From the sequence record PP047752: a stretch of 64,000 nt of DNA. One strand, written 5' to 3'. Every line of letters begins with the position of its first letter. Position 1 is the first letter of the stretch. A program made the position numbers and the translations under genes. Origin of the DNA: Escherichia phage KEP2. The notes beneath the pieces are model-generated. The model did no database searches, had not been told where the DNA came from, and saw only the letters and a list, made by a program, of their open reading frames with translations. Of the stretch, positions 4,438 through 41,892 are shown piece after piece.

Positions 4438-4455
4438 AAAGTTTTAAAAAGGGTA

Positions 4456-4484
4456 TTGACAATGTGTTTGATACCCTTTAATAT
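4456..4484 (+). promoter_or_regulatory. sigma70-like promoter (TTGACA-17-TAATAT) leading the tRNA array
   Basis: TTGACA 4456-4461, 17-nt spacer, TAATAT 4479-4484; flanked by GGGTAT/ATACCC inverted repeat. Confidence 0.55.
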
Positions 4485-4546
4485 GTTCTACATAGAAACG
4501 AAATGAGAGCTTTTCTAAGATACTGAAAAATATTTTAAAAAAGTTC

Positions 4547-4580
4547 TTGACAACCACTAAAAAATAATGTTAAAGTGGTT
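4547..4580 (+). promoter_or_regulatory. second TTGACA box with ACCACT/AGTGGT inverted repeat
   Basis: TTGACA 4547-4552; weak -10 candidates; palindrome arms 4553-4558 and 4575-4580. Confidence 0.35.
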
Positions 4581-4602: not shown

Positions 4603-4679
4603 CTCTGTTTAGCTCAGCTTGGTAGAGCGTTCCGTTTGGGGCGGTAAGGCCGGAGGTTCAAGTCCTCCAACAGAGACCA
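4603..4679 (+). tRNA. tRNA-Pro (anticodon TGG)
   Basis: Acceptor complementarity, TAGCTCAG D-arm, anticodon loop TTTGGGG, T-arm GGAGG-TTCAAGT-CCTCC. Confidence 0.7.
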
Positions 4680-4686
4680 AATTAAT

Positions 4687-4764
4687 GTTCCAGTAGACAA
4701 AATGGTAAAGTCACCACTCTTTCAAAGTGGATATTTGAGGGTTCAAATCCCTTCTGGAACGCCA
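4687..4764 (+). tRNA. tRNA-Glu (anticodon TTC)
   Basis: Acceptor GTTCCAG/CTGGAAC, anticodon stem CCACT/AGTGG with loop CTTTCAA, T-loop TTCAAAT, CCA encoded. Confidence 0.7.
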
Positions 4765-4771
4765 GTTTTGA

Positions 4772-4844
4772 CAGAAGACCAATTACAGCAAACTTAATCT
4801 TATTCATCTGACACGAAATCGGACAAAGAAGAGGTTTGGTCTGG
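4772..4844 (+). repeat. hairpin module A of CAGAAGACC…GGTCTGG family
   Basis: 5' CAGAAGACCAA pairs with 3' TTGGTCTGG; CAGCAA box in loop. Confidence 0.5.
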
Positions 4845-4855
4845 TCATTAAGAAT

Positions 4856-4932
4856 TGCGGGTATAGAGAAAGGGCGTCTCACATGTCTCATTAGCATGGT
4901 ATCGGCAGGTTCGACTCCTGCACCCGCCTCCA
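4856..4932 (+). tRNA. tRNA with anticodon CAT (Met or Ile2)
   Basis: D-stem GAGA/TCTC, anticodon stem CATGT/GCATG with loop CTCATTA, T-arm GCAGG-TTCGACT-CCTGC, CCA encoded; one acceptor mismatch. Confidence 0.55.
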
Positions 4933-4938
4933 ATTTTG

Positions 4939-4998
4939 CAGAAGACCGTATTCAGCAACAAAATACTTTTTGCGGATAAAAGAAAAAACACGGTCTGG
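4939..4998 (+). repeat. hairpin module B of CAGAAGACC…GGTCTGG family
   Basis: 5' CAGAAGACCGT pairs with 3' ACGGTCTGG (compensatory change relative to A and C); CAGCAA box. Confidence 0.5.
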
Positions 4999-5009
4999 CA
5001 ATGTATTAA

Positions 5010-5086
5010 GGTTAGGAAGCACATAAGGTATGTGCGGTCGCCTGTTAAGCGAATGGCACAGGGTTCGAATCCCTGACTAACCGCCA
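5010..5086 (+). tRNA. tRNA-Asn (anticodon GTT)
   Basis: D-stem GCAC/GTGC, anticodon loop CTGTTAA, T-arm CAGGG-TTCGAAT-CCCTG, CCA encoded. Confidence 0.7.
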
Positions 5087-5173
5087 AATTATAATAAGTA
5101 TTTCAAGATGATGTTTTGAGAGGGCTATTTAGCCCCTCCCTTAAAGAGTTCTTACGAGTATTCTTTAAAGGAG

Positions 5174-5248
5174 CAGAAGACCAAATTCAGCAAGTACGTA
5201 TGATATTTTCAAGCCAATCAAATTTTGAAAAATTTAAACTTGGTCTGG
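5174..5248 (+). repeat. hairpin module C of CAGAAGACC…GGTCTGG family
   Basis: 5' CAGAAGACCAA pairs with 3' TTGGTCTGG; CAGCAA box. Confidence 0.5.
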
Positions 5249-5261
5249 CTCAACAAATTTA

Positions 5262-5393
5262 CAGAAGACCGTTTACAGCAAAACTTAAACAATCTATTTC
5301 TCCGGTAAAGAAAAGGTGAAGGTTCGATTCCTTCACTCGGCAGATGTCGAGTTGGTGTAATGGTAACACTTAAGATGATAAACAACGGTCTGG
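5262..5393 (+). ncRNA. candidate Y-RNA-like (YrlA-like) ncRNA with permuted tRNA-like core
   Basis: Terminal stem AGACCG(5266-5271)/CGGTCT(5386-5391); inside, T-arm GAAGG-TTCGATT-CCTTC (5318-5334), 7-bp acceptor-like stem ACTCGGC/GTCGAGT closed by AGAT loop (5335-5352), D-arm GTGT-AATGGTA-ACAC (5355-5369). Confidence 0.45.
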
Positions 5394-5542
5394 TAATTAT
5401 CTTTGTAGGTGAGCTATTAAGCTTACCTGTGAGTATGCGACCACAAAGGGTGAAAGGGTAAATTCTAGATTTAAACCCAACAAGGCACATCGCTACAGAC
5501 CTTAAGCAAGTCTGGGTAGCTTATCTACAAAGATAATTTAAT

Positions 5543-5618
5543 GGAAGTGTAGCAGAATGGTGATGCGGCAGACTTTTAATCTGACAGGCGATGGGTTCGA
5601 ATCCCTCCACTTCTACCA
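5543..5618 (+). tRNA. tRNA-Lys (anticodon TTT)
   Basis: Acceptor GGAAGTG/CACTTCT, anticodon loop CTTTTAA, T-loop TTCGAAT, CCA encoded. Confidence 0.6.
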
Positions 5619-5622
5619 ATAT

Positions 5623-5699
5623 GGTTCAGTCGCAGATAAGGTAATGCAGGGGTTTCATAAGCCCTTTGAATGTGGGTTAGATTCCCATCTGAACCTCCA
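5623..5699 (+). tRNA. tRNA with anticodon CAT (Met or Ile2)
   Basis: Acceptor GGTTCAG/CTGAACC, anticodon stem GGGGT/GCCCT with loop TTCATAA; T-loop atypical (TTAGATT). Confidence 0.5.
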
Positions 5700-5701
5700 A
5701 T

Positions 5702-5776
5702 TGTGGGTTAGCATAAATGGTAATGCAAACGGCTGATAACCGTTAGAAGAGGGTTCGATACCCTCACCTACAACCA
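5702..5776 (+). tRNA. tRNA-Ile (anticodon GAT)
   Basis: D-stem GCAT/ATGC, perfect anticodon stem AACGG/CCGTT with loop CTGATAA, T-arm GAGGG-TTCGATA-CCCTC, CCA encoded. Confidence 0.75.
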
Positions 5777-5791
5777 ATTTCAATAAAGTTG

Positions 5792-5820
5792 TTGACATTG
5801 AGATGTGACCACTTTATAGT
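5792..5820 (+). promoter_or_regulatory. sigma70-like promoter (TTGACA-17-TATAGT) inside the tRNA array
   Basis: TTGACA 5792-5797, 17-nt spacer, TATAGT 5815-5820. Confidence 0.55.
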
Positions 5821-6113
5821 AACTAAAATACTTCATAATATGTATAATTCAAACACCAATACATGAGCGTTAGACGTAACACAATGTGGGGAAATTTGTT
5901 GTACATATTCTGAATAGTTTTCGTTGCGTAGCGTCTATTTTGCAAATTTAAAATAAATGCAAACGACAATGTTTTTCTGGCAGTAGCTTGATAGGCTAAA
6001 CACCAGTGAGGTCTTCCAATCCCTCATCAAAGAATTTGGCGTACTCGCCCACGGTATGATTAATAAGGTGGGCATCTTTAAGGGCTTTCTAAGAGAGTCT
6101 TTAAAGATAATTA

Positions 6114-6195
6114 CGGGGCGTATCTCAGCGGTCTTCTAAACCGCCGTTAACCGAGTAAGTGGAGTATGCGGGTTCGAGTCCTGCCGCCTCGACCA
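6114..6195 (+). tRNA. atypical tRNA-like element (T-arm, acceptor and TCT anticodon-like loop; no recognisable D-arm)
   Basis: Acceptor CGGGGCG/CGCCTCG plus CCA, T-arm GCGGG-TTCGAGT-CCTGC, stem-loop GCGGT-CTTCTAA-ACCGC; 82 nt. Confidence 0.4.
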
Positions 6196-6209
6196 ATTTT
6201 GGAGAAATC

Positions 6210-6557
6210 ATGAAAACTTGTATTAGGTGCAAACTTAGCAAGGATGAAAATGATTTCTACATGAAAGATGGTAAGAGAACTCATTCATACTGTAAAAAGT
6301 GTGTTAATGAGCAAACCATAGAAAGACAAAGAGCACTTAAACTTTCAGCTATTGAGTACAAAGGTGGGGTTTGTCATGATTGTGGTAAAAGGTATCATCC
6401 AGCAGTGTATGACTTCCATCATTTGAATCCTTCAGAGAAAGATTTTAACATTGGTCATAGAAAAAGTCTGAAGTTCTCTCAAGAACTAAAAGATGAACTT
6501 GACAAATGTGTTTTGCTATGTTCAAATTGCCATAGGGTAAGACATGCAAAGTATTAG
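6210..6557 (+). CDS. HNH homing-endonuclease-like protein
   Basis: CxxC…CxxC zinc pairs and HH…N…CH motif (YDFHHLNP…CSNCHRVRH); start taken at ATG 6210 because track start 6159 overlaps the tRNA-like element. Confidence 0.7.
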   Translation: MKTCIRCKLSKDENDFYMKDGKRTHSYCKKCVNEQTIERQRALKLSAIEYKGGVCHDCGKRYHPAVYDFHHLNPSEKDFNIGHRKSLKFSQELKDELDKCVLLCSNCHRVRHAKY

Positions 6558-6694
6558 TTAGCAGATTGCTTAGACGACCTTATCGGGTCTCCGTGTAAGG
6601 AGGTGGTCTGTATCTCATGTTTTCCAGAACATGTAAATAATCTGAGAAGGGGCTTTACAGTGTTGCGAAAATACGGTAAGCTTCGAATTATAGT

Positions 6695-6776
6695 GTGGGA
6701 CGATGTTAAGACTCTAAGGCATGAGCAACGGCCTCCAAAACCGTTTCAAAGTGGTTCAACTCCTCCGTCCCATGCC
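6695..6776 (+). tRNA. tRNA-Trp-like (anticodon CCA), atypical length
   Basis: Acceptor GTGGGAC/GTCCCAT plus CCA, anticodon loop CTCCAAA; D-region too long for a canonical fold. Confidence 0.4.
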
Positions 6777-6790
6777 AAAGTCTTATTAGG

Positions 6791-6878
6791 GGTAGGTAGC
6801 GGCTAATGGTAGCCAAACTGTCTTGAAAACAGTTGCCACTGTAGAGATACGGTGAGGGTTCGACTCCTTTACTTACCG
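6791..6878 (+). tRNA. tRNA-Ser (anticodon TGA), long variable arm
   Basis: Acceptor GGTAGGT/ACTTACC, anticodon stem ACTGT/ACAGT with loop CTTGAAA, ~20-nt variable arm, T-loop TTCGACT. Confidence 0.6.
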
Positions 6879-7135
6879 CCTAATAAGATTTAAAGCCAAG
6901 CTTCATTCGGATGTTGCTTTGGTATCCCTCGTGTATTGTCGTACACACTGATAAAGCACCTAGTAGGTGTCACGGAGAAGAGATAATATCAAGCTCTCCA
7001 AAGGTTCTAGTCACCGGATTAAACAAGACTATGCAAAGACCAATTTAGGTCTTTTTAGAGGGCTTCTAAGGTTATTACAGCTTGTTGTGGAACCTTGTTG
7101 CTTAGGTTCTTAGAAGTTCTCTAAAAAGATTTAAT

Positions 7136-7212
7136 GCACCTATAGCCCAACTGGTAGAGGCAGCAGACTTAGAATCTGCTCAGTGTGAGTTCGAATCTCT
7201 CTAGGTGTACCA
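7136..7212 (+). tRNA. tRNA with anticodon TAG (Leu codon CUA) but short variable loop
   Basis: Acceptor GCACCTA/TAGGTGT plus CCA, 6-bp anticodon stem AGCAGA/TCTGCT with loop CTTAGAA, T-loop TTCGAAT. Confidence 0.5.
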
Positions 7213-7219
7213 AATTAAT

Positions 7220-7295
7220 GCAGGTGTAGCAAAATGGTTATGCGGCTGACTCTTAATCAGTAAGACGATGGGTTCAATTCCCTCCACCTGTACCA
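7220..7295 (+). tRNA. tRNA-Lys (anticodon CTT)
   Basis: Acceptor GCAGGTG/CACCTGT, anticodon loop CTCTTAA, T-loop TTCAATT, CCA encoded; paralogous to 5543-5618. Confidence 0.6.
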
Positions 7296-7301
7296 AACAT
7301 T

Positions 7302-7377
7302 GGGGATGTAGTTTACATGGTTAAAACATAAGTTTTGCAAACTTAAGTACAGGGTTCAATTCCCTGCTTCTCCACCA
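7302..7377 (+). tRNA. tRNA-Ala (anticodon TGC)
   Basis: D-stem GTTT/AAAC, perfect anticodon stem TAAGT/ACTTA with loop TTTGCAA, T-arm CAGGG-TTCAATT-CCCTG, CCA encoded. Confidence 0.7.
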
Positions 7378-7459
7378 ATTAGTGCATCCATAGTTTAAAT
7401 GGGAAAATTACAGTCTTCCAAACTGAGGTTGAGGGTTCGATTCCCTCTGGATGCTCCAA
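7372..7459 (+). repeat. 88-bp perfect direct repeat, copy 1 (contains tRNA-Gly)
   Basis: Identical to 7785-7872 by direct comparison. Confidence 0.85.
7384..7458 (+). tRNA. tRNA-Gly (anticodon TCC), copy 1
   Basis: Perfect acceptor GCATCCA/TGGATGC, anticodon loop CTTCCAA, T-arm GAGGG-TTCGATT-CCCTC, CCA encoded. Confidence 0.75.
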
Positions 7460-7465
7460 ATTAAT

Positions 7466-7541
7466 GCTCCTATCGTATAATTGGCTATTACGGTTGCCTT
7501 GTAAGCAACTTATCAGGGTTCGAATCCTTGTGGGAGCACCA
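7466..7541 (+). tRNA. tRNA-Thr (anticodon TGT)
   Basis: Acceptor GCTCCTA/TGGGAGC, perfect anticodon stem GTTGC/GCAAC with loop CTTGTAA, T-loop TTCGAAT, CCA encoded. Confidence 0.7.
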
Positions 7542-7543
7542 AT

Positions 7544-7632
7544 TCAGAGGTCAAGTGAAAGACCGCTGGTGTCAACTGAAGACCGTAACAAATTCCACGG
7601 AGTTGAGTTAGCGGCACAACTTCAGACCTCTT
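7544..7632 (+). ncRNA. structured spacer, candidate small RNA related to the AGACC hairpin family
   Basis: Outer stem CAGAGGTC/GACCTCT, inner pairings CTGAAG/CTTCAG and CCGCT/AGCGG; contains CTGAAGACCGTAACAAATT resembling the 5' box of modules A-D. Confidence 0.3.
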
Positions 7633-7636
7633 TCAT

Positions 7637-7711
7637 ACTCGCTTAGTTTATATGGTAAAACACCACCCTTACAAGATGAAGAAAAAGGTTCAAGTCCTTT
7701 AGTGAGTACCA
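7637..7711 (+). tRNA. tRNA-Val-like (anticodon TAC), weak anticodon stem
   Basis: Acceptor ACTCGCT/AGTGAGT plus CCA, D-stem GTTT/AAAC, T-arm AAAGG-TTCAAGT-CCTTT; only 3 of 5 anticodon-stem pairs. Confidence 0.45.
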
Positions 7712-7712
7712 T

Positions 7713-7790
7713 GTTCCAGTATCCCAATTGGCAGAGGATGCAAGCTCAAACCTTGTATTAGTGACGGTTCGAATCCGTCTTGGAACACCA
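7713..7790 (+). tRNA. tRNA with anticodon CAA (Leu codon UUG) but short variable loop
   Basis: Acceptor GTTCCAG/TTGGAAC plus CCA, anticodon stem GCAAG/CTTGT with loop CTCAAAC, T-arm GACGG-TTCGAAT-CCGTC. Confidence 0.5.
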
Positions 7791-7872
7791 ATTAGTGCAT
7801 CCATAGTTTAAATGGGAAAATTACAGTCTTCCAAACTGAGGTTGAGGGTTCGATTCCCTCTGGATGCTCCAA
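7785..7872 (+). repeat. 88-bp perfect direct repeat, copy 2 (contains tRNA-Gly)
   Basis: Identical to 7372-7459. Confidence 0.85.
7797..7871 (+). tRNA. tRNA-Gly (anticodon TCC), copy 2
   Basis: Sequence identical to 7384-7458. Confidence 0.75.
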
Positions 7873-7895
7873 GTTATTTTACTCTCTCTCAATTA

Positions 7896-24963: not shown

Positions 24964-24964
<1 letters not shown>

Positions 24965-26433
24965 TGGCAGGATTAACTACAACAGGATTACAAACTCTAA
25001 GATATCAGGAAATTTTTGATAATATCAAATCAAGACTTCTTAGAGATATTTCACCCAACCTTGACGTTTCTGAAGATAGCCAATTAGGACTCTTCCTAGC
25101 TTCAATTGCAAGGTCTTTAGCAGATACTCATGAGATTCTATCAGAAATCTACGATGGGGGTACAATTGATAAGGCTGAAGGCTTTAACCTTGATGATATC
25201 ACAGCTTTAAATGCGGTATACAGATATGTTGCTCAGGCAACAAGAGGCCAAGTTGAGTTTACTGGAACGACTGGTGCTACCATTCCTTCAACAACAAGAT
25301 TAAGAAGTACTGCCGGAAACATCTTTTACCCAGTTAATAATATTACCCTTACTCCATCATATTGTGTTGAAGCTATTCTTGAAGTTAACTCTTTACGAAC
25401 TGATGCAGATTATGTTATTATTATTGATAACGTCATTTTCTCATATAAACCAACCTCATCAGACACAATCACCACGCTTCTAACAAAATTATCAGAAGCT
25501 ATTAATGGTGGTATTGTAGCAAAAGCAGAAGTCATTAATGATGGAGCCGCACTAAGAGTCTATAAAGACGAGGGCGATATCATTGCAAGAACAAACCCTA
25601 TGGTTGTCACTGCAACAACGTTTCTGACCTTTACAAAAATTACAACTATTTCAGATGTAGTAGCTGAAGAGGTTGGTGCTACCCCTGCTTTGGCTGGTAC
25701 GCTTATTGAGATTGAGACAACTGTTGATGGTCTTGACAGTATTTATAACAGGTATGACTTAACAACTGGTAGAAACGAAGAAACTGACACAGAACTTAGA
25801 CAGAGATATTTAGAGTCCTTAGCAGTTACTGGTGTAGGGACTTTAGATGCAATTGTAGCTGCTGTTAAAAGAGTTCAAGGTGTCTCAGATGCTTCAGGTG
25901 TTGAGAATGATACTGAAGAGACAAGCTCAGAAGGTCTTCCACCAAAATCTTTTAAGATTGTTGTAGTTGGTGGTCAAAATGATAATGTTGCTCAAGCAAT
26001 CTGGGATACAAAACCTGCTGGTATTAGGGCTTATGGCTCAATTTTTGGTACAGCCCATGATTTAGGTGGTTTGGCACATAATATTTATTTTAGCAGACCA
26101 ACACCAAAATACGCATTTGTTAAAGTCTCTTACTCTTTATATGATGAAGAAAACTTGACAATCCCTGAAGAGGATATCAGAGACAGCATTGTACAAGGTA
26201 TTAATGCCTACGGAAGAACTCTTAAGGTTGGTAATGATGTTATTCCTAATAGAATCTATGGGTATATCTATGACGTAATTAAAGGTATTGAGATTAATGA
26301 GGTTAAAGTAGCCTTATCAAACAGCCAATCAGTTCCACCTAGTGATGGGCAGTATACTACAGCAAGAATTACTGTTGACGGTGACCAATATACTGTTTGG
26401 GAAAGCAGCCAGTATACTATCACTAAGGAGTAA
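24964..26433 (+). CDS. hypothetical baseplate protein (J-like size class)
   Basis: 489-aa ORF. Confidence 0.35.
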
Positions 26434-26435
26434 TA

Positions 26436-27290
26436 ATGTTTGAGAAGATTGATAGTGTTTATTACAAAACACTTGATGAAAGGACTGTAACACAGTTTAA
26501 AGATAAATTTATCTATACAAGTATCTTGAAAGCAATCACTGATGAATTACAAACTCTAGAGGATGTTTGCTGGCAGATGCACACGGAGAGAAATATCAGA
26601 ACGTCAGTAGGCCAACAACTTGATAATATTGGCTCACTGATTAAAGTTCCTAGACCTTTAGGTGCAGATGATGAAACATATAGGGCTATGCTTTATATTC
26701 AAATCTTCCTAAGACGCTCTGACACTACTCCAACATTCTTGCAAAAAGCAATTATGACACTATATGGTGCAACTTTCTCTCAGATTTTTGAGCATATTAC
26801 TCCTAAGACTGGTGGCATTGTTATCCGTATCAACACTAGAAAAAGCGTTCTAGATGCTGCATATACACTGTCAAAGATTTCTGCAACAACTACTGGTTCC
26901 GCTGTTATCTTAAGAGATGTTACTTTAAATGGAACCGCTTGGACACCTGTAGAGGTTGCTGATTCATCACTTGCTATTGTTGATGATAAAGAGAACTGGT
27001 TTGTAACTGATGCTAACAGAGGTCTTGTCACGAATAACACTGGTGGCTCTCTGGAGTCCAACTTAGTAGGTAGTCTTGCAGATGCTGGTGTTATTGATGG
27101 TTACTTTAGGGTTGACAGAACAGCAAACTCACAGAGTGATGATTATATGACTGTAGATAGGTCCAATAATAGTGGCTATTTCATCGTTGGTAAAGAAGCT
27201 ATTGCAGGTGGTGCATACGGAGTCATGGCTGAGGTTGCACAAATTGTCAAAGGCAGAAAAGATAAATCACAACAAGAAGGAAATTCCTAA
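26436..27290 (+). CDS. hypothetical baseplate/tail protein
   Basis: 284-aa ORF. Confidence 0.4.
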
Positions 27291-27592
27291 TGGCAGTTTT
27301 AAATTGGTCTACAAATGAGGTGGACACTGACGGTAATCAGTTAAAAGTCTTACCACCAACAGAAGTCCAAGAGACAGGTCTTTTAAAGGGTGAACCTATG
27401 GGTAGGCAATGGTTCAACTATATTATCAACTACCTACTGAATAAAGTAAACGGTACTGTTGGTGAAGTTCGCTCATATGCAACTCAGCAACCAGATTTAG
27501 TAGCCAATGGCTGGAAACTGATTAAGTCTGAGACAGGTACTGCAACAACAAGTACAAAGAACCTTTACACATATGAATATGTAGGAGCTTAA
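27290..27592 (+). CDS. hypothetical tail protein
   Basis: 100-aa ORF. Confidence 0.35.
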
Positions 27593-27594
27593 TA

Positions 27595-28770
27595 ATGGCA
27601 GTCGGTGAAATTCAAATTAGTGCCTTGCCACAAGCGGCCTTACCAGTTGATTTAAGTGATATCTTCCATCTTAAGCAAGGTGTTGAGGATAAAAGATGTA
27701 CGCTTGAACAGTTGTTAGCACCTCACGCATCTTTGAGGAATAATCCTCATGGTGTAACCAAATCGCAAGTGGGTCTTGATAATGTTATTAACTCTCTTCA
27801 ATTAGTTGCAGCTAATAACTTGTCAGACATTGTGAATGTTGCTGAGGCAAGAGCAAATCTACAAATTATGTCGTCAGAGGAAGTGAATAACTTAATTCAA
27901 CAACATATTGACGACAAAAGTAACCCACACAATACGACGAAAGCACAGGTCGGTTTAAGTAATGTTCAGAACTGGACAACATCTAATCTGTACAATGAAG
28001 ATGCTGATAAGTATGCTACCGCGAGAGCAGTGAATAATTTATACAAAGCTATCCAAGCATCATATCCAGTAGGGACTATTCATCTATCTGTTAATTCTGC
28101 TAACCCAGCCACTTACTTGCTTTGTGGAGGTACTTGGGAGTTAGTTTCTAGAGGTAGAGCACTAGTTGGTTATGATACAAATTCTAGACCTGTTGGTTCA
28201 ACGTTTGGTTCTCAGACTGTAGTATTAACAAATAACAATTTACCAGCACATACTCACTCTATCTATCTAACAGGTGGTGGTCATACACACTCTGCAAGTG
28301 TATCTATCTCTAGTTTTGATTATGGTTCAAAGAGTACATCAACTTTTGACTATGGTACGAAGGCAACTAACAGTGCTGGTGCTCACACTCACACGTTTAG
28401 CGGCACGACAAGTAATGATGGTAACCATAACCATAGAGTACCACTGAGGGGTAATGATAGAAGTGGGTCAAATGCTATTACTGCATCTGCTTATGCTGGG
28501 ATTGATAATAATATGTATACTGATTTAGCAGGTGCTCACACCCATAGCTTCTCAGGCACAACTGCATCATCTGGTGCTCATAGTCATACTGTTGCAATTG
28601 GTGCTCATAGCCACACTGTTAATATTGGTTCACACAGTCATACGGGTACTGTTACTGTCTCTAACTCTGAACATACACACTCAGGAACATCCGGTTCTGT
28701 TGGTGGTGGTCAAGCTTTCAGTGTTGAGCAGCCATCTTTTGTCGTATATGTATGGCAGAGAACAGCTTAA
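27595..28770 (+). CDS. tail fibre protein with HxH repeats
   Basis: Repeated GAHTHTFSGTT / GAHSHTV motifs; C-terminus AFSV…W.RTA shared with 28817..31366. Confidence 0.65.
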   Translation: MAVGEIQISALPQAALPVDLSDIFHLKQGVEDKRCTLEQLLAPHASLRNNPHGVTKSQVGLDNVINSLQLVAANNLSDIVNVAEARANLQIMSSEEVNNLIQQHIDDKSNPHNTTKAQVGLSNVQNWTTSNLYNEDADKYATARAVNNLYKAIQASYPVGTIHLSVNSANPATYLLCGGTWELVSRGRALVGYDTNSRPVGSTFGSQTVVLTNNNLPAHTHSIYLTGGGHTHSASVSISSFDYGSKSTSTFDYGTKATNSAGAHTHTFSGTTSNDGNHNHRVPLRGNDRSGSNAITASAYAGIDNNMYTDLAGAHTHSFSGTTASSGAHSHTVAIGAHSHTVNIGSHSHTGTVTVSNSEHTHSGTSGSVGGGQAFSVEQPSFVVYVWQRTA

Positions 28771-28778
28771 TTTCTTTA

Positions 28779-28801
28779 CAGGGGCTTTGTAGCCCCTTTT
28801 A
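28779..28801 (+). terminator. rho-independent terminator
   Basis: AGGGGCT-TTGT-AGCCCCT followed by TTTT. Confidence 0.55.
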
Positions 28802-28816
28802 AGAGGAAAATTTATA

Positions 28817-31366
28817 ATGGCAGATTACAAGTTGAGTCAATTAAACTCAATCGACACAATTCGTTCAGAAGACCTATTGCACATCAGAGTTAAGAAAAGA
28901 CCTGAAATGTTGGGTGACGAAGACCGTAGAATGACCTATCAAGACTTCTTAGCTTCCTTCAAACTAGAAAGGTTTGTTCAGATTGCTGGGAGCACTATGA
29001 CGGGGGATTTAGGTATTGTCAAGTTACTTTACGGTGGAAAGGCTGTATTTGACCCTACAGACTCTTCTGAGATTACTATTGGGGATATTTTAAAGACTTT
29101 TAAAATTAACTCAAATGGTCTTAAACTCACTATCGCAGATGCTTCAAGGTCAGCAACTGTTTATCATACTTTGAATAAACCAAGTCCTAATGAACTTGGC
29201 ATGAGAACTAATGAAGAGAATGATGCAAGATATGCAAGGCTTGCTGTTACAAACACATTCTCTGGGACTCAGAACATTCAAGGTGATGCTAACTTACTTC
29301 GTCTTAGAAACCAGAATGCAAATAATGCGCAATATATTGAGGGTGTGAACTTAGATGGTTCAGCTAGATGGTGGGTTGGTATTGGTAGTAATGGCTCTGA
29401 TGAAGTAAAACTGTACAATAACAAATACAACTCAGCTTTGGCTATTGCAAGCAATATCTCTGTTAATAAGTCTTTAGCAATCACTGGACAAGTTCAACCT
29501 TCAGATTTCTCTAACTTAGACGCTAGATACTTTACTCAGACAGTCGCTAATCAGAGATTTGCACAGTTAGCTGGCAATAACACCTTTACAGGTGCTAACA
29601 CATTTAGGACTATGAGTGTTATTTCAAATGCTGCTGCCATCACACTGCAATGTGCATCAGCAAACGAATCCCTGTATCTACTTGCAAAAGATTATGAAGG
29701 TGGAAACTTATGGTATCTTGGTAAAGGTAGTTCAGGTGCTGGTGTAACTATCTACAACTATACCACTAACACCTCTTTGGTCTTAGATGCTGCTGGAGTA
29801 TCAGCAAATAAAAATGTCAGAATCACTGGTCAAGTTCAACCTTCAGATTGGGCTAACATTGACTCTAGATATATTCCGGCAGCAACATTAAGTACAATTG
29901 CAAGAACTAATGCAAGGAATACTTTTAATGGTGTACAGACAGTTGTTACGGATAATGAAGGTCTGATTGTTAAAAACTCTACTCAGAATAGACCATTATA
30001 TATTCGTGGTGTGGACACTACTAATGTATCAAGATGGTGGATTGGTGTTGGTGGTGCTGATACGAATGATGTTACCCTAAATAACAGTTATTCTGGAACC
30101 CAATTGGTTCTCGGGAATACAACATCATACATTAACAAAACATTGACTATTGCTGGACAAGTTCAACCTTCAGATTTTTCTAACTTAGATGCTAGATACT
30201 TTACGCAAAGTGCTAGTGATAGCAGATACCTAAGAATCAGAAGCACTAGCTTCAATGTGGGAAACACTGAGAAGTGGGCTAAAATTGCCACTGTTGTGAT
30301 GCCACAATCAGCATCCACTGCTGTTATTGAGGTATTTGGTGGGTCAGGTTTTAATATTAATACACCACAACAAGCAGGTAAATGTGAAATTGTTCTGCGA
30401 ACTTCAAATAACAATCCAAAGGGCTTAAATGTTGTTGCTTGGAGAACATCAGATAACACCATTGTCAGGGATATTGGTTATGTGAATACTTCTGGAGACA
30501 CCTATGATATTTACTATCTTGCTGGTACGTATCAAAACAGCACAACGACAAGGGTTCAGTCTTCTAGTAATGCAAGTGTACAGTTGTTTGAAGTCCCACA
30601 GACATTTGATGATGCTCCACAAGGTATTGTGAAGGGTACAATTGCAAAATACTACACAAGTTTGCAAAAACCAACCCCTTCAGATATTGGTGCATACACT
30701 AAAGCAGAGACTGACCAGAAGATTGCAGAAGCAATTAGTGACTCTACAGACCTGAATAAAATCTATCCAGTGGGTATTGTGACATGGTTTAACAGTAATG
30801 TTAACCCTAATACAGCACTTCCTGGTCTAACTTGGACGTACCTGAATAATGGTGTTGGTAGAACTATTAGAATTGCAGCAGCAAATGGTTCAGATGTTGC
30901 TACAACTGGTGGTTCAGATTCTGTAACGCTATCTGTTGGTAACTTACCTTCACACACGCATAGTTTCTCTGCTACTACTTCATCATTTGATTATGGTACT
31001 AAGACGACAAATACGACTGGCAACCATGCTCACGATAGAGGTAACATGGAAATTTCTGGTGTGGTTGGTTGGTTCAGAAGTGATAACAGTGCATTCTACA
31101 CTGCGAGCGGTGCGTTTCAGATGGGTAGTTCTCAGGCTTCACATGGCTTCACAGGCTCTAACTTCACTTACGGTGCTGCTGTTGATTTCCACGCGTCAAG
31201 AACTTGGACAGGTGTAACCAACACAACTGGTAACCACGCGCACAGCGTTGGTATTGGTGCTCACAGCCACACAGTTAGCGGTAACACAGGTGGCACTGGT
31301 TCTGGTTCAGCATTTAGTGTTACTAACCAGTTCTACAAGTTAATGGCTTGGGTGAGAACTGCTTAA
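28817..31366 (+). CDS. long tail fibre protein with HxH repeats and internal triplicated segment
   Basis: 849 aa; C-terminal HTHSF / GNHAHS / GAHSHTV motifs; three copies of ITGQVQPSDFSNLDARYFTQ-type segment. Confidence 0.65.
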   Translation: MADYKLSQLNSIDTIRSEDLLHIRVKKRPEMLGDEDRRMTYQDFLASFKLERFVQIAGSTMTGDLGIVKLLYGGKAVFDPTDSSEITIGDILKTFKINSNGLKLTIADASRSATVYHTLNKPSPNELGMRTNEENDARYARLAVTNTFSGTQNIQGDANLLRLRNQNANNAQYIEGVNLDGSARWWVGIGSNGSDEVKLYNNKYNSALAIASNISVNKSLAITGQVQPSDFSNLDARYFTQTVANQRFAQLAGNNTFTGANTFRTMSVISNAAAITLQCASANESLYLLAKDYEGGNLWYLGKGSSGAGVTIYNYTTNTSLVLDAAGVSANKNVRITGQVQPSDWANIDSRYIPAATLSTIARTNARNTFNGVQTVVTDNEGLIVKNSTQNRPLYIRGVDTTNVSRWWIGVGGADTNDVTLNNSYSGTQLVLGNTTSYINKTLTIAGQVQPSDFSNLDARYFTQSASDSRYLRIRSTSFNVGNTEKWAKIATVVMPQSASTAVIEVFGGSGFNINTPQQAGKCEIVLRTSNNNPKGLNVVAWRTSDNTIVRDIGYVNTSGDTYDIYYLAGTYQNSTTTRVQSSSNASVQLFEVPQTFDDAPQGIVKGTIAKYYTSLQKPTPSDIGAYTKAETDQKIAEAISDSTDLNKIYPVGIVTWFNSNVNPNTALPGLTWTYLNNGVGRTIRIAAANGSDVATTGGSDSVTLSVGNLPSHTHSFSATTSSFDYGTKTTNTTGNHAHDRGNMEISGVVGWFRSDNSAFYTASGAFQMGSSQASHGFTGSNFTYGAAVDFHASRTWTGVTNTTGNHAHSVGIGAHSHTVSGNTGGTGSGSAFSVTNQFYKLMAWVRTA
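29460..30240 (+). repeat. three in-frame copies of a ~330-340-bp repeat unit inside the fibre gene
   Basis: CACTGGACAAGTTCAACCTTCAGAT… recurs at about 29482, 29824 and 30151. Confidence 0.6.
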
Positions 31367-31387
31367 TCACTTGTTGACTGATTGTTA

Positions 31388-31416
31388 AGATGGTGTTAAT
31401 ATTCTTTATGGGTATT
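31388..31416 (+). promoter_or_regulatory. sigma70-like promoter (TTGACT-17-TAATAT)
   Basis: TTGACT 31388-31393, TAATAT 31411-31416; overlaps 9-bp inverted repeat AAGATGGTG/CACCATCTT. Confidence 0.45.
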
Positions 31417-31445
31417 CTCACCATCTTGGCTGATGAGGTGATTAA

Positions 31446-31643
31446 ATGCCTACAATCCTAGCAATTCTTCTAAAAAATCTAGGTAGCTTCTTCTGGAAAC
31501 TCATTTTATCCCTTCTAAGTGAATACATGATTGAGAAAGTGTTCTTTAAGCTTGCAAGATACCTTGCGAGTAAGACAGACACACCTATTGATGATGAGTT
31601 CGTAGATAACTTAGAAAAAGCTTTTAAGGGGGAGAATAAATGA
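31446..31643 (+). CDS. small hydrophobic protein (holin-like?)
   Basis: 65 aa, hydrophobic N-terminus. Confidence 0.35.
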   Translation: MPTILAILLKNLGSFFWKLILSLLSEYMIEKVFFKLARYLASKTDTPIDDEFVDNLEKAFKGENK

Positions 31644-32011
31644 AGTGGCTAGAGGAAGCTTTTAAAAATAATATTGGTGCAATTGTAGTTGGTATTTTTA
31701 GTGTTATTGGGATGTATACCACCATGCAAGTTTCGGATGGTAAGCAAGAAGTGTCTGTCACAACAAAGTTACAGCAGCTAGATAATTATATCAAATCTAA
31801 TTACTCAGCTATTCGTGATTTACAGTCTGACATGAGACTGATTCAGCTAGGGATGGAGAACCAGAAAGTTCAGTTAGAGAATGTTAAGGGTGAGAACGCA
31901 AAACTTACTAAAACTCTGGATAAATTCTCTGACAGTGTGAACAATCTGGCTCAATCAGTATCAGCCTTGCAAGCTATTACTGAAAAGAACACAAAGAATA
32001 CTGAAAAATAA
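31640..32011 (+). CDS. membrane-anchored coiled-coil protein
   Basis: 123 aa, TM segment (IGAIVVGIFSVIGMY) then heptad-rich region. Confidence 0.4.
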   Translation: MKWLEEAFKNNIGAIVVGIFSVIGMYTTMQVSDGKQEVSVTTKLQQLDNYIKSNYSAIRDLQSDMRLIQLGMENQKVQLENVKGENAKLTKTLDKFSDSVNNLAQSVSALQAITEKNTKNTEK

Positions 32012-32017
32012 AATTTA

Positions 32018-32046
32018 AGGCTCCTTTTTACGGGAGCCTTTTTTGT
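32018..32046. terminator. bidirectional rho-independent terminator between convergent modules
   Basis: AGGCTCC…GGAGCCT hairpin flanked by T-run on plus strand and A-run upstream. Confidence 0.65.
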
Positions 32047-41808: not shown

Positions 41809-41867
41809 TTTTACTCCCTCTAAAATCATTAACCTCATACATTACTGCAAAAAATTATAAAAAGCAA

Positions 41868-41892
41868 GTTGACAATGTGCTTGACAAGGTGT
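41868..41892 (+). promoter_or_regulatory. tandem TTGACA boxes (GTTGACAATGTGCTTGACAAGGTGT) in divergent intergenic region
   Basis: 23 of 25 nt identical to 2418-2442. Confidence 0.4.

Follow-up and report, generated by a model that had tools for sequence, protein, structure and literature searches.

The closest described relatives of the locus analysed here are the tail fibre genes of Escherichia phage JohannRWettstein (Bas63; gp26 and gp27), of phage Sf14 (gp52 and gp53) and of Felix O1 (gp76 and gp77). Cryo-EM places both a short tail fibre (STF) and a long tail fibre (LTF) on the Bas63 virion (PMC12609058), and both fibres are likewise present on the virion of Sf14 (PMC11821841). In Bas63, the D2 domain of wedge protein 2 is the STF binding site, and the LTF platform protein is the attachment point of the LTF (PMC12609058). 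The genus Felixounavirus is widely used in the biocontrol of Salmonella and E. coli O157, and its receptor is LPS. The presence of gp37-like tips with HxH motifs and of a repeated beta-helix rod in Felixounavirus fibres is already known and was structurally described in 2025; what is new here is only the cassette-like swapping of LTF variable modules between related phages.

The 64-kb window (the whole stretch of DNA that was analysed) belongs to a Felixounavirus with a DNA identity of 96% to phage ZX4221 and 94% to wV8, and its gene order is the same as that of Bas63 (MZ501086), i.e., wedge protein 2, wedge protein 1, LTF platform protein, STF, LTF, a 65-aa ORF, a 123-aa ORF and td. Since the three genes upstream match the Bas63 baseplate structure 9NDY (Table 1), and with the gene order in agreement, we identify the two fibre ORFs from their sequence as the short and long tail fibres of Felixounavirus, the STF gene being the counterpart of Bas63 gp26, Sf14 gp52 and Felix O1 gp76, and the LTF gene that of Bas63 gp27, Sf14 gp53 and Felix O1 gp77. 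Both genes are complete and stand in tandem on the same strand. The hairpin between them failed the 5-T rule of the terminator scanner; the annotation of wV8 has a Rho-independent terminator at the same place. Taken jointly, the explanation that we regard as very probable is an STF/LTF pair with gp37-type tips, an ancient triplication in the LTF and allele swapping at the LTF linkers.

Table 1. Baseplate and fibre genes of the locus, with the predicted domains of the two fibres.
Feature	Coordinates	Strand	Evidence and remarks
Baseplate wedge protein 2	24964..26433	+	489 aa, Baseplate_J; PDB 9NDY 'Wedge protein 2 (gp023)' E 0; Pfam PF04865
Baseplate wedge protein 1	26436..27290	+	284 aa; PDB 9NDY 'Wedge protein 1 (gp024)' E 7e-158
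LTF platform protein	27290..27592	+	100 aa; PDB 9NDY chain S 'LTF platform protein (gp025)' E 2.6e-56
STF gene	27595..28770	+	391-aa ORF; PHROG 2097 tail fiber E 1e-137
STF N-terminal part, aa 1-153: baseplate-binding segment, then helix-and-turn motifs NPHGVTKSQVGLDNV and NPHNTTKAQVGLSNV	27595..28053	+	conservation, model
STF collar, Gp10_C-like, aa 154-218	28054..28248	+	Pfam PF21939 E 1.6e-18
STF needle, ascending strands: HxH at H219, H230, H264, H278 and duplicated FDYGxK motif	28249..28434	+	motif scan; repeat family D5
STF head, distal tip, aa 281-314, hypervariable	28435..28536	+	position matches 2XGF head domain
STF needle, descending strands: HxH at H315, H329, H338, H347, H360, then C-terminal strand AFSVEQPSFVVYVWQRTA	28537..28767	+	
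Hairpin GGGGCT-TTGT-AGCCCC, then TTTTAA, between the STF and LTF genes	28781..28802	+	sequence
LTF gene	28817..31366	+	849-aa ORF; PHROG 4277 E 0; 98% identical to ZX4221_51
LTF N-terminal baseplate-binding domain and first beta module, aa 1-143	28817..29245	+	94% identical to Bas63
LTF repeat unit 1, aa 144-257: gp37_trimer / T7-gp17-pyramid-like beta module and linker ITGQVQPSDFSNLDARYFTQ	29246..29587	+	13 allele clusters
LTF repeat unit 2, aa 258-366; divergent cassette core 29602-29836	29588..29914	+	18 allele clusters
LTF repeat unit 3, aa 367-472	29915..30232	+	22 allele clusters
LTF knob (K) module, aa 473-625, all-beta	30233..30691	+	PHROGs 3299, 21552, 22609; 12 allele clusters
LTF collar, Gp10_C-like, aa 626-712	30692..30952	+	Pfam PF21939 25 bits, slightly below 27-bit cut-off
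LTF needle, ascending: HxH at H713, H737 and FDYGTK motif	30953..31033	+	
LTF head, aa 740-806, hypervariable cassette; divergent DNA block about 31006-31246	31034..31234	+	22 allele clusters
LTF needle, descending: HxH at H807, H816, then C-terminal strand AFSVTNQFYKLMAWVRTA	31235..31363	+	

Tip homology and domain plan of the two fibres

The initial annotation had noticed two ORFs sharing an HxH-rich C-terminus, which we confirm for both products. The His motifs it quoted are all present: GAHTHTF at STF aa 262-268, GAHSHTV twice in the STF (aa 327-333 and 336-342) and once in the LTF (aa 814-820), and GNHAHSV at LTF aa 805-811, and both C-termini carry the common AFSV...W.RTA tail (full strands in Table 1). 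The STF contains 9 HxH motifs vs 1.5 predicted from composition, the LTF 4 vs 0.17, and no other window ORF of at least 100 aa contains three or more of them. The C-terminal regions of the two fibres share 31% identity over 228 aa (E 3e-12). That such a domain is typical of fibre tips agrees with the homology of both proteins to the T4 gp37 tip (2XGF), where STF aa 145-361 align with residues 17-229 (E 4.9e-28) and LTF aa 707-828 align at E 1.1e-8. The HxH motifs lie on both needle strands (STF four ascending and five descending, LTF two and two), and among 52 sequences the STF HxH histidines are invariant or nearly so, with all eight LTF needle histidines invariant. This homology indicates that both fibres end in a receptor-binding tip of the T4 gp37 type, with collar, needle and head.

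The AlphaFold2 monomer models have little confidence in the tips (mean pLDDT of the STF 64.8; LTF residues 614-849 below 50), and Foldseek with the low-confidence STF model gave no match at E <=0.001, the best being the T4 gp10 C-terminal domain (E 0.18); the tip fold is therefore assigned from sequence homology. By analogy with T4, the chain would leave the collar, ascend a slender beta-barrel needle, form a small head at the distal end and descend along the needle again, so that its last strand (AFSV...W.RTA) would end near the collar. The HxH motifs would face the needle interior; in T4, each HxH motif, contributed by three chains, binds one iron ion, and by this rule there may be up to 9 metal sites in the STF and up to 4 in the LTF.

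Of the remaining STF, the N-terminal part is 81-94% identical to the window among 48 relatives, with model helices at residues 37-46, 66-78, 82-88, 94-106 and 143-156, and its role in baseplate binding is taken from the description of Bas63 (PMC12609058). The STF collar can be aligned both to its 2XGF counterpart and to structures of the T4 gp10 C-terminus, and it is the best-predicted region of the STF model (pLDDT 78-90). At aa 281-320, identity to the window falls to 15-40% and entropy rises up to 2.9 bits in the same 48 relatives, and the STF head is presumed, by analogy, to be the region of receptor contact. The LTF head, with an identity of 52-54% and entropy of about 1.7 bits at aa 751-800, is likewise the presumed receptor-contacting part.

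The LTF rod is predicted to consist of five beta modules between conserved helix-and-turn linkers, of which modules 2-4 form the triplicated segment. Its N-terminal module, where the model shows beta strands at aa 85-117 with low confidence, has one allele (every pair at least 80% identical among 118 relatives), and the collar is also a single allele with more than 90% identity in all pairs of these 118. The knob, with pLDDT mostly 64-86 and a single dip at aa 510-516, is common to some T-even gp37 proteins and P1-like fibres, with 31-46% identity by tblastn to T-even distal fibre subunits and phage SJ46; its alleles include an unrelated, shorter type in LTFs of 788-790 aa.

Exchange and age of the LTF modules

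Among the 118 LTF proteins, each variable module falls into 12-22 allele clusters, whereas N-terminus and collar have a single cluster apiece, and 81 module-allele combinations occur; for several module pairs, all four allele pairings are found. The per-module identities form discrete classes, the pairwise identity distributions are bimodal, and how similar two proteins are in one shaft, knob or head module says almost nothing about their similarity in another (r -0.10 to 0.31). When the window is compared with wV8, DNA identity is 93-100% except in two sharp blocks, the unit-2 core (29602-29836; 48-66%) and the head (about 31006-31246; 60-78%). These data show that homologous recombination at conserved linkers and at HxH-coding DNA is the main source of LTF diversity among relatives, and they support the recombination that had been suggested from the sequence, as the module alleles are discrete, reshuffled at conserved linkers, and set off from wV8 in sharp identity blocks. 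Such recombination swaps discrete, approximately 50%-divergent alleles of each LTF module and of the head; copy number hardly ever changes.

What the exchanged alleles do can be read in two ways. It is possible, although doubtful, that shaft-module divergence is selectively neutral, the linkers permitting recombination and the beta cores tolerating many sequences with no consequence for host range, which is the first possibility considered by the Bas63 authors (PMC12609058). In the literature searched, no experiment ties the shaft modules to receptor binding, in T4 the receptor-binding role is assigned to the head, and the allele combinations are near random, as neutral reassortment would give. 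Against neutrality, discrete alleles that diverge by about 50% lie within flanks that are 93-100% identical, and the alleles therefore represent old lineages that were maintained and not modules drifting in place. In addition, a challenge experiment with a Felixounavirus on Salmonella Infantis saw variants at two LTF positions, aa 497 and 534, gain in frequency (PMC6669636); if the numbering corresponds, both positions lie in the knob module.

The second reading, which we put forward tentatively and hold to be rather unlikely, is that the three shaft modules and the knob, instead of being passive spacers, are functional cassettes that can be exchanged independently of each other and that bind glycans laterally or are targeted by a host defence. 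If true, the fibre would be a combinatorial multi-site adhesin with five sites, each drawing on 12-22 maintained alleles. The Bas63 authors called the shaft variability unexpected and left it unexplained (PMC12609058), and we found no established link between LTF variation and host range in the literature searched. The pattern of discrete alleles with free reassortment fits maintained functional alleles and neutral reassortment equally well. Outside the unit-2 core and the LTF head, the fibre loci of the window phage and wV8 hardly differ, so that nature provides a near-isogenic pair in which the module that determines host range could be sought. The cassette map, i.e., conserved crossover sites and allele counts by module, could guide fibre engineering; the practical value is limited.

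The three copies of about 110 aa seen in the 849-aa fibre are real, with DNA repeats at 29463, 29805 and 30132 (spacing 342 and 327 nt). The positions given for their starts (near 29482, 29824 and 30151) are indeed repeated, but they mark ITGQVQPSD, the most conserved motif of the units, which lies near the end of each unit and not at its start; HMM placement puts the units at aa 144-257, 260-366 and 367-480. Pfam PF20744 (gp37_trimer) matches the LTF in three stretches (E 3.4e-77, 255 bits vs a cut-off of 21.7), the unit profile matches the T7 gp17 pyramid domain (4A0U, E 8.8e-7), and Foldseek with the low-confidence LTF monomer model finds 4A0T (E 2e-4) and T4 gp34 (4UXG, E 3e-3). Pairwise identity between the copies is 36-40%, and their DNA similarity is limited to a 76-nt linker (71-84%). 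The triplication, of a T7-gp17-pyramid or gp37_trimer-type unit, is ancient and part of the five-module rod, so its interpretation as a recent or labile expansion has to be given up.

It is accordingly very unlikely that the segment is a labile repeat array in which gain and loss of copies tune fibre length and host range. Besides the divergence of the copies, exactly three units were found by HMM in 119 of 120 close relatives, these being the closest cluster representatives and thus a non-random sample, and the Bas63 paper saw a constant repeat number among 18 species (PMC12609058). Variation that would suit a labile array does occur: among distant metagenomic relatives, P0241 (1015 aa) has five units and P0242 (901 aa) four, both keeping the LTF N-terminus and the ...MAWVRTA end, phage DaR-2019a has its units displaced by one position, and one close relative, P0076 (740 aa), has two units. 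The last sits at the end of a metagenome contig of 6.7x coverage and may be an assembly collapse. As to invariance among relatives, on which the initial annotation had made its reading depend, the copy number is nearly invariant and the sequence varies strongly.

Inferred placement on the virion

T4 gp37 requires the chaperone gp38, which is encoded adjacent to it, and the dependence of a gp37-type tip on such a partner would suit the explanation that a single member of the pair is a virion fibre, the other being an assembly chaperone or unpackaged. In the mass spectrometry of Felix O1, gp77 was a major band and gp76, the STF homologue, was found at 9% coverage in the shotgun proteome, below the threshold of the authors (PMC3185647). 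However, the gp37-type tip is complete in both proteins and its histidines are conserved, neither the STF nor the LTF matched a tail-fibre assembly or chaperone family when scanned against Pfam and PHROG, and density for both fibres is seen on the virions of Bas63 (PMC12609058) and Sf14 (PMC11821841). We consider the chaperone explanation highly improbable; two tail fibres, both of them virion components in Bas63, Sf14 and Felix O1, are the better description.

The suggestion of alternative receptor specificities does not stand in its original form, as six STF and six LTF share one virion in the Bas63 and Sf14 relatives and are thus not alternatives. An origin of tip diversity within the phage, be it a diversity-generating retroelement or a segment that inverts as in Mu or P1, can practically be dismissed, although the Sf14 authors liken the two fibres to the alternative fibres of Mu (PMC11821841): no inverted repeats flank the fibre genes, neither head region has a further, template-like copy in the 64-kb window, and both genes are complete, in tandem and on the same strand.

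For the STF/LTF pair, homology to Bas63 and Sf14 together with gene order suggests that each protein would form a homotrimer, with six trimers of each per virion. The STF N-terminus would attach to wedge protein 2, and the LTF to the LTF platform protein encoded directly upstream of the fibre pair. For the window phage, the place on the virion, the trimeric state, the metals bound and the receptor are all inferred from its relatives.

Comparison with known systems

The domain plan and gene order are the same as in gp26/gp27 of Bas63 and gp52/gp53 of Sf14. The Bas63 STF (bas63_0026) is 74% identical to that of the window, and the Bas63 LTF, which also has three HMM repeat units, is 94% identical at the N-terminus, 95% in the collar and 90% at the C-end. 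The variable modules of the Bas63 LTF are all different alleles (R1 54%, R2 60%, R3 40%, an unrelated knob at 14%, head 26%), and the LTF is 849 aa long in the window vs 784 aa in Bas63. The tips also differ in their HxH counts (STF 9 vs 7, LTF 4 vs 6) besides head and knob, and therefore details of needle length and head shape may differ.

Collar, HxH needle and head follow in the same order as in the T4 gp37 tip (2XGF), the FDYGTK motif and GxHxH boxes occur in both, and the C-terminal strand is predicted to return to the collar as in T4. Unlike gp37, which belongs to a four-protein kinked fibre, the tips here would belong to fibres made of one protein each that attach straight to the baseplate, and the fibre genes of the window have no adjoining gp38 homologue. 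T4 gp37 has 7 HxH motifs vs 9 in the STF and 4 in the LTF, and the LTF head of about 66 aa differs from T4 in taking the place of part of the needle.

The 110-aa LTF unit matches residues 373-439 of T7 gp17 (E 9e-7), in the pyramid (PDB 4A0T, 4A0U, 7BOZ), which is present there as one copy, whereas in the LTF three units follow in tandem, every one of them carrying a conserved helix-and-turn linker. For the rod, the Foldseek match of the LTF model to 4UXG points to T4 gp34 (4UXG, 5NXH), with which the Bas63 authors also compare the LTF rod (PMC12609058); the TM-scores to 4A0T and 4UXG are low because of the low-confidence monomer model.

The mode of exchange resembles that of the T-even distal tail-fibre locus, where conserved motifs, including His-box-coding DNA, flank divergent adhesin segments and are crossover points. 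Recombination at conserved motifs in that locus was reportedly described by Tetart, Desplats and Krisch in 1998 (J Mol Biol). Compared with the T-even locus, exchange in the LTF also covers three shaft modules and the knob, with 12-22 alleles each, within a single gene.

Identity of the two fibre genes and their probable place on the virion

The short tail fibre (STF) and long tail fibre (LTF) genes, together with the other features of the window, are listed in the table. Across the fibre region, the DNA identity of the window is 96% to the related phage ZX4221, 95% to vB_EcoM_H12 and 94% to wV8, and its sequence places the window in Felixounavirus. The genes upstream match three chains of the baseplate of the related phage Bas63 (9NDY), namely wedge protein 2 (E 0), wedge protein 1 (E 7e-158) and the LTF platform protein (E 2.6e-56), and the gene order in the Bas63 genome (MZ501086) is that of the window. 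By these upstream matches and the common gene order, the two ORFs are the counterparts of Bas63 gp26 (STF) and gp27 (LTF). The STF is 74% identical to that of Bas63, while for the LTF the identity is 94% at the N-terminus, 95% in the collar and 90% at the C-end.

Coordinates of the fibre genes and of other features in the window
Feature	Coordinates	Strand	Description
Hex-Dec gene	1-~950	-	Hoc-like hexamer decoration protein; cut by the window start
35-nt motif	2408-2442, 4445-4479, 4524-4558, 41858-41892		two TTGACA-like boxes (TAAAAA..GTTGACAA.GT.CTTGACAAGGTGT)
tRNA array	4603-7871	+	16 tRNA genes
111-nt duplication	7353-7463 / 7766-7876		in the tRNA array; 91% identical; yields two tRNA-Gly(tcc) copies
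STF gene	27595-28770	+	ORF, 391 aa; tandem with LTF gene
Gap hairpin	28781-28802		GC-rich, GGGGCT-TTGT-AGCCCC, then TTTTAA; in the 46-nt STF-LTF gap, directly before the LTF Shine-Dalgarno sequence
LTF gene	28817-31366	+	ORF, 849 aa; tandem with STF gene
LTF DNA repeats	starts 29463, 29805, 30132		spacings 342 and 327 nt
wV8 block 1	29602-29836		unit-2 core; 48-66% DNA identity to wV8
wV8 block 2	about 31006-31246		head; 60-78% DNA identity to wV8; HxH-coding DNA at its bounds
Promoter-like site with inverted repeat	31374-31427		TTGACT, 17 nt, TAATAT, then the inverted repeat; both intergenic, from LTF stop codon to 65-aa ORF
9-bp inverted repeat	31387-31395 and 31419-31427		AAGATGGTG / CACCATCTT; after the promoter-like site
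65-aa protein gene	31446-31643	+	hydrophobic N-terminus; PHROG 402; directly after the LTF gene
123-aa protein gene	31640-32011	+	one transmembrane segment (predicted) and a coiled coil; last gene of the late operon
Hairpin	32017-32040		two-way, terminator-like; after the 123-aa protein gene

In cryo-EM of Bas63, a 430-A STF and a 630-A LTF are seen on one baseplate, with wedge 2 holding the STF and the LTF platform holding the LTF (PMC12609058). Both have collar, HxH needle and head; at the head the fibre chain turns back so that the C-terminus is again at the collar, and the LTF has in addition five beta-helix modules with triple-helix-and-turn motifs between them (PMC12609058). By analogy, the STF and LTF of the window would be attached to the baseplate in the same way and share the collar-needle-head plan. 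The same fibre pair, of 391 and 792 aa, is present in the related phage Sf14 (PMC11821841), and in virion proteomics of Felix O1 the LTF is a major 82-kDa band, with the STF detected at low coverage (PMC3185647). Receptors in the genus are LPS structures (PMC8594841). The initial annotation had taken the two fibres for alternatives, against which speaks their joint presence on the virion in cryo-EM of relatives; the tip homology and the same cryo-EM contradict a chaperone role for either protein, which it had named as a possible refutation.

Hex-Dec matches chain S of Bas63 9NCF (E 2e-246) and also Sf14 9C2D. Its capsid-binding domain is N-terminal, and after it come at least three Ig-like repeats, their period being 249-252 nt; the number of Ig domains differs between species (PMC12609058).

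Repeat units of the LTF rod and their number

Three stretches of the LTF are matched by Pfam gp37_trimer (E 3.4e-77), and an HMM sets the units at aa 144-257, 260-366 and 367-480. The three units of about 110 aa are thus as initially described, but the DNA positions taken for their starts mark the ITGQVQPSD motif, which lies near the end of the unit. Since the copies share only 36-40% pairwise identity, the triplication is old.

With a profile of the three units, a match of about E 1e-6 was obtained to residues 373-439 of the T7 fibre gp17, its pyramid domain (4A0U, 4A0T, 7BOZ). Structures were modelled as AlphaFold2 monomers with a mean pLDDT of 64.8 (STF) and 54.3 (LTF), and their tips are unreliable; in the LTF monomer model, poor overall, the unit cores and the knob (the beta module after unit 3) are all-beta modules of pLDDT 70-90 with short helices between them. 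For the LTF model, Foldseek gave only weak local matches (4A0T, E 2e-4; T4 gp34, E 3e-3), and for the STF monomer model no significant match; among PDB sequences, the knob domain by itself had no match better than E 0.4. The profile match, the modelled beta modules and the Foldseek matches equate the triplicated segment with modules 2-4 of the LTF rod, which has five.

Of the 120 cluster representatives closest to the LTF, 119 have three units; P0076 (740 aa, L003 3001-5223) is a two-unit form, but from the end of the metagenome contig ERZ1505402 NODE_674, of low (6.7x) coverage. In the LTF of Salmonella phage DaR-2019a, the three units are displaced by one position, in the order alternative unit, unit-1 type, unit-2 type. 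Among 1.84 billion representatives, the unit is present in 208 clusters, including metagenomic LTF-like proteins of five units (P0241, 1015 aa) or four (P0242, 901 aa) whose N-terminus and ...MAWVRTA end are those of the LTF; no deposited phage more than 50% identical to either was found. Four- and five-unit forms occur only in distant relatives. Within the genus, the copy number is thus constant, and it changes only at deep divergence, with which the statement on repeat number in the Bas63 paper (18 species) agrees (PMC12609058). Invariance of the repeats, proposed initially as a refutation, is seen in number among close relatives, whereas their sequence varies strongly.

Neighbouring features

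At the site of the gap hairpin, a Rho-independent terminator is annotated in wV8. The hairpin could lower expression of the LTF relative to the STF, and it is of interest given that LTF occupancy on Bas63 virions is partial (PMC12609058). In Krischvirus Ec_Makalu_001, a 50%-identical homologue of the 65-aa protein is flanked by gp37 and holin t. The 65-aa ORF was considered as a fibre chaperone and rejected, because elsewhere its family adjoins head, tail or lysozyme genes without a gp37-like fibre. In many relatives, the 123-aa protein bears the annotation "putative holin" or "holin", although no holin-lysin cassette was reported in the genome paper on Felix O1 (PMC3185647). The 35-nt motif, which has one of its copies where the strands switch near 42 kb, is a possible promoter or regulatory site of the phage.

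Module exchange and the fibre tips

Among the 120 relatives, conserved parts of the LTF are its N-terminus, collar and C-end and the linkers that follow units 1 and 2, with less conservation in the one that follows unit 3, and the unit cores, knob and head are variable. The variable part of the STF is its head region (aa 281-320). Module identities to the window form discrete classes and not a gradient: about 97% or 55% for unit 1, about 100%, 59% or 48% for unit 2, about 98%, 85%, 70% or 15% for the knob, and about 93%, 63% or 15% for the head. With alleles defined as clusters at 85% identity, there are 13 for unit 1, 18 for unit 2, 22 for unit 3, 12 for the knob and 22 for the head, and a single one each for the N-terminus and the collar. 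The 118 full-length LTF proteins display 81 distinct allele combinations, several module pairs show all four allele pairings, pairwise module identities are bimodally distributed, and those of shaft, knob and head are almost uncorrelated between modules (r -0.10 to 0.31). The DNA of wV8 is 93-100% identical to the window outside the two blocks in the table. The pattern of LTF variation is one of cassettes exchanged through homologous recombination at the conserved linkers, and the importance initially given to recombination is borne out by the discrete alleles, their 81 combinations and the wV8 blocks. A Mu-type invertible segment or DGR was rejected, as the window has no inverted or template repeats that would indicate one. 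By inspection of the module identities of named relatives, there is no simple relation between host genus and head allele.

Regarding the tips, all HxH motifs quoted initially are present in the translations, the STF having 9 (1.5 expected from composition) and the LTF 4 (0.17 expected); no further long ORF of the window has three or more. The C-terminal regions are 31% identical over 228 aa (E 3e-12) and end alike in AFSV...W.RTA, which upholds the view of STF and LTF as distant paralogues. The T4 gp37 receptor-binding tip 2XGF is homologous to the C-terminus of both the STF (E 4.9e-28) and the LTF (E 1.1e-8), and this, with the Bas63 counterparts, confirms both as fibres with fibre-tip C-termini. 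Pfam Gp10_C matches both collars, that of the LTF at 25 bits, slightly below the 27-bit cut-off. All eight LTF needle histidines are invariant among 52 sequences, and across relatives those of the STF are invariant or nearly so. Nine motifs are present in 43 of 48 STF relatives, and LTF relatives have four (80) or six (37). In T4, HxH motifs coordinate iron along the needle (PMC12609058); by analogy, there would be up to nine metal sites in the STF and up to four in the LTF.

The Bas63 authors found the shaft variability unexpected and offered three untested reasons (PMC12609058), alongside which we found no discussion of recombination in that paper. The cassette map is useful, although incremental, and so is the near-isogenic pair that wV8 forms with the window. 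Exchange of the same kind, by recombination at conserved motifs, has reportedly been described at the distal fibre locus of T-even phages; our literature search found no paper on gp37 His boxes with recombination. The observation is correct but low in novelty. Compared with Bas63, the window has 9 instead of 7 HxH motifs in the STF and 4 instead of 6 in the LTF; its tips are allelic variants of those already studied, and the window carries a system that is known and characterised structurally, in an allele combination that is new.
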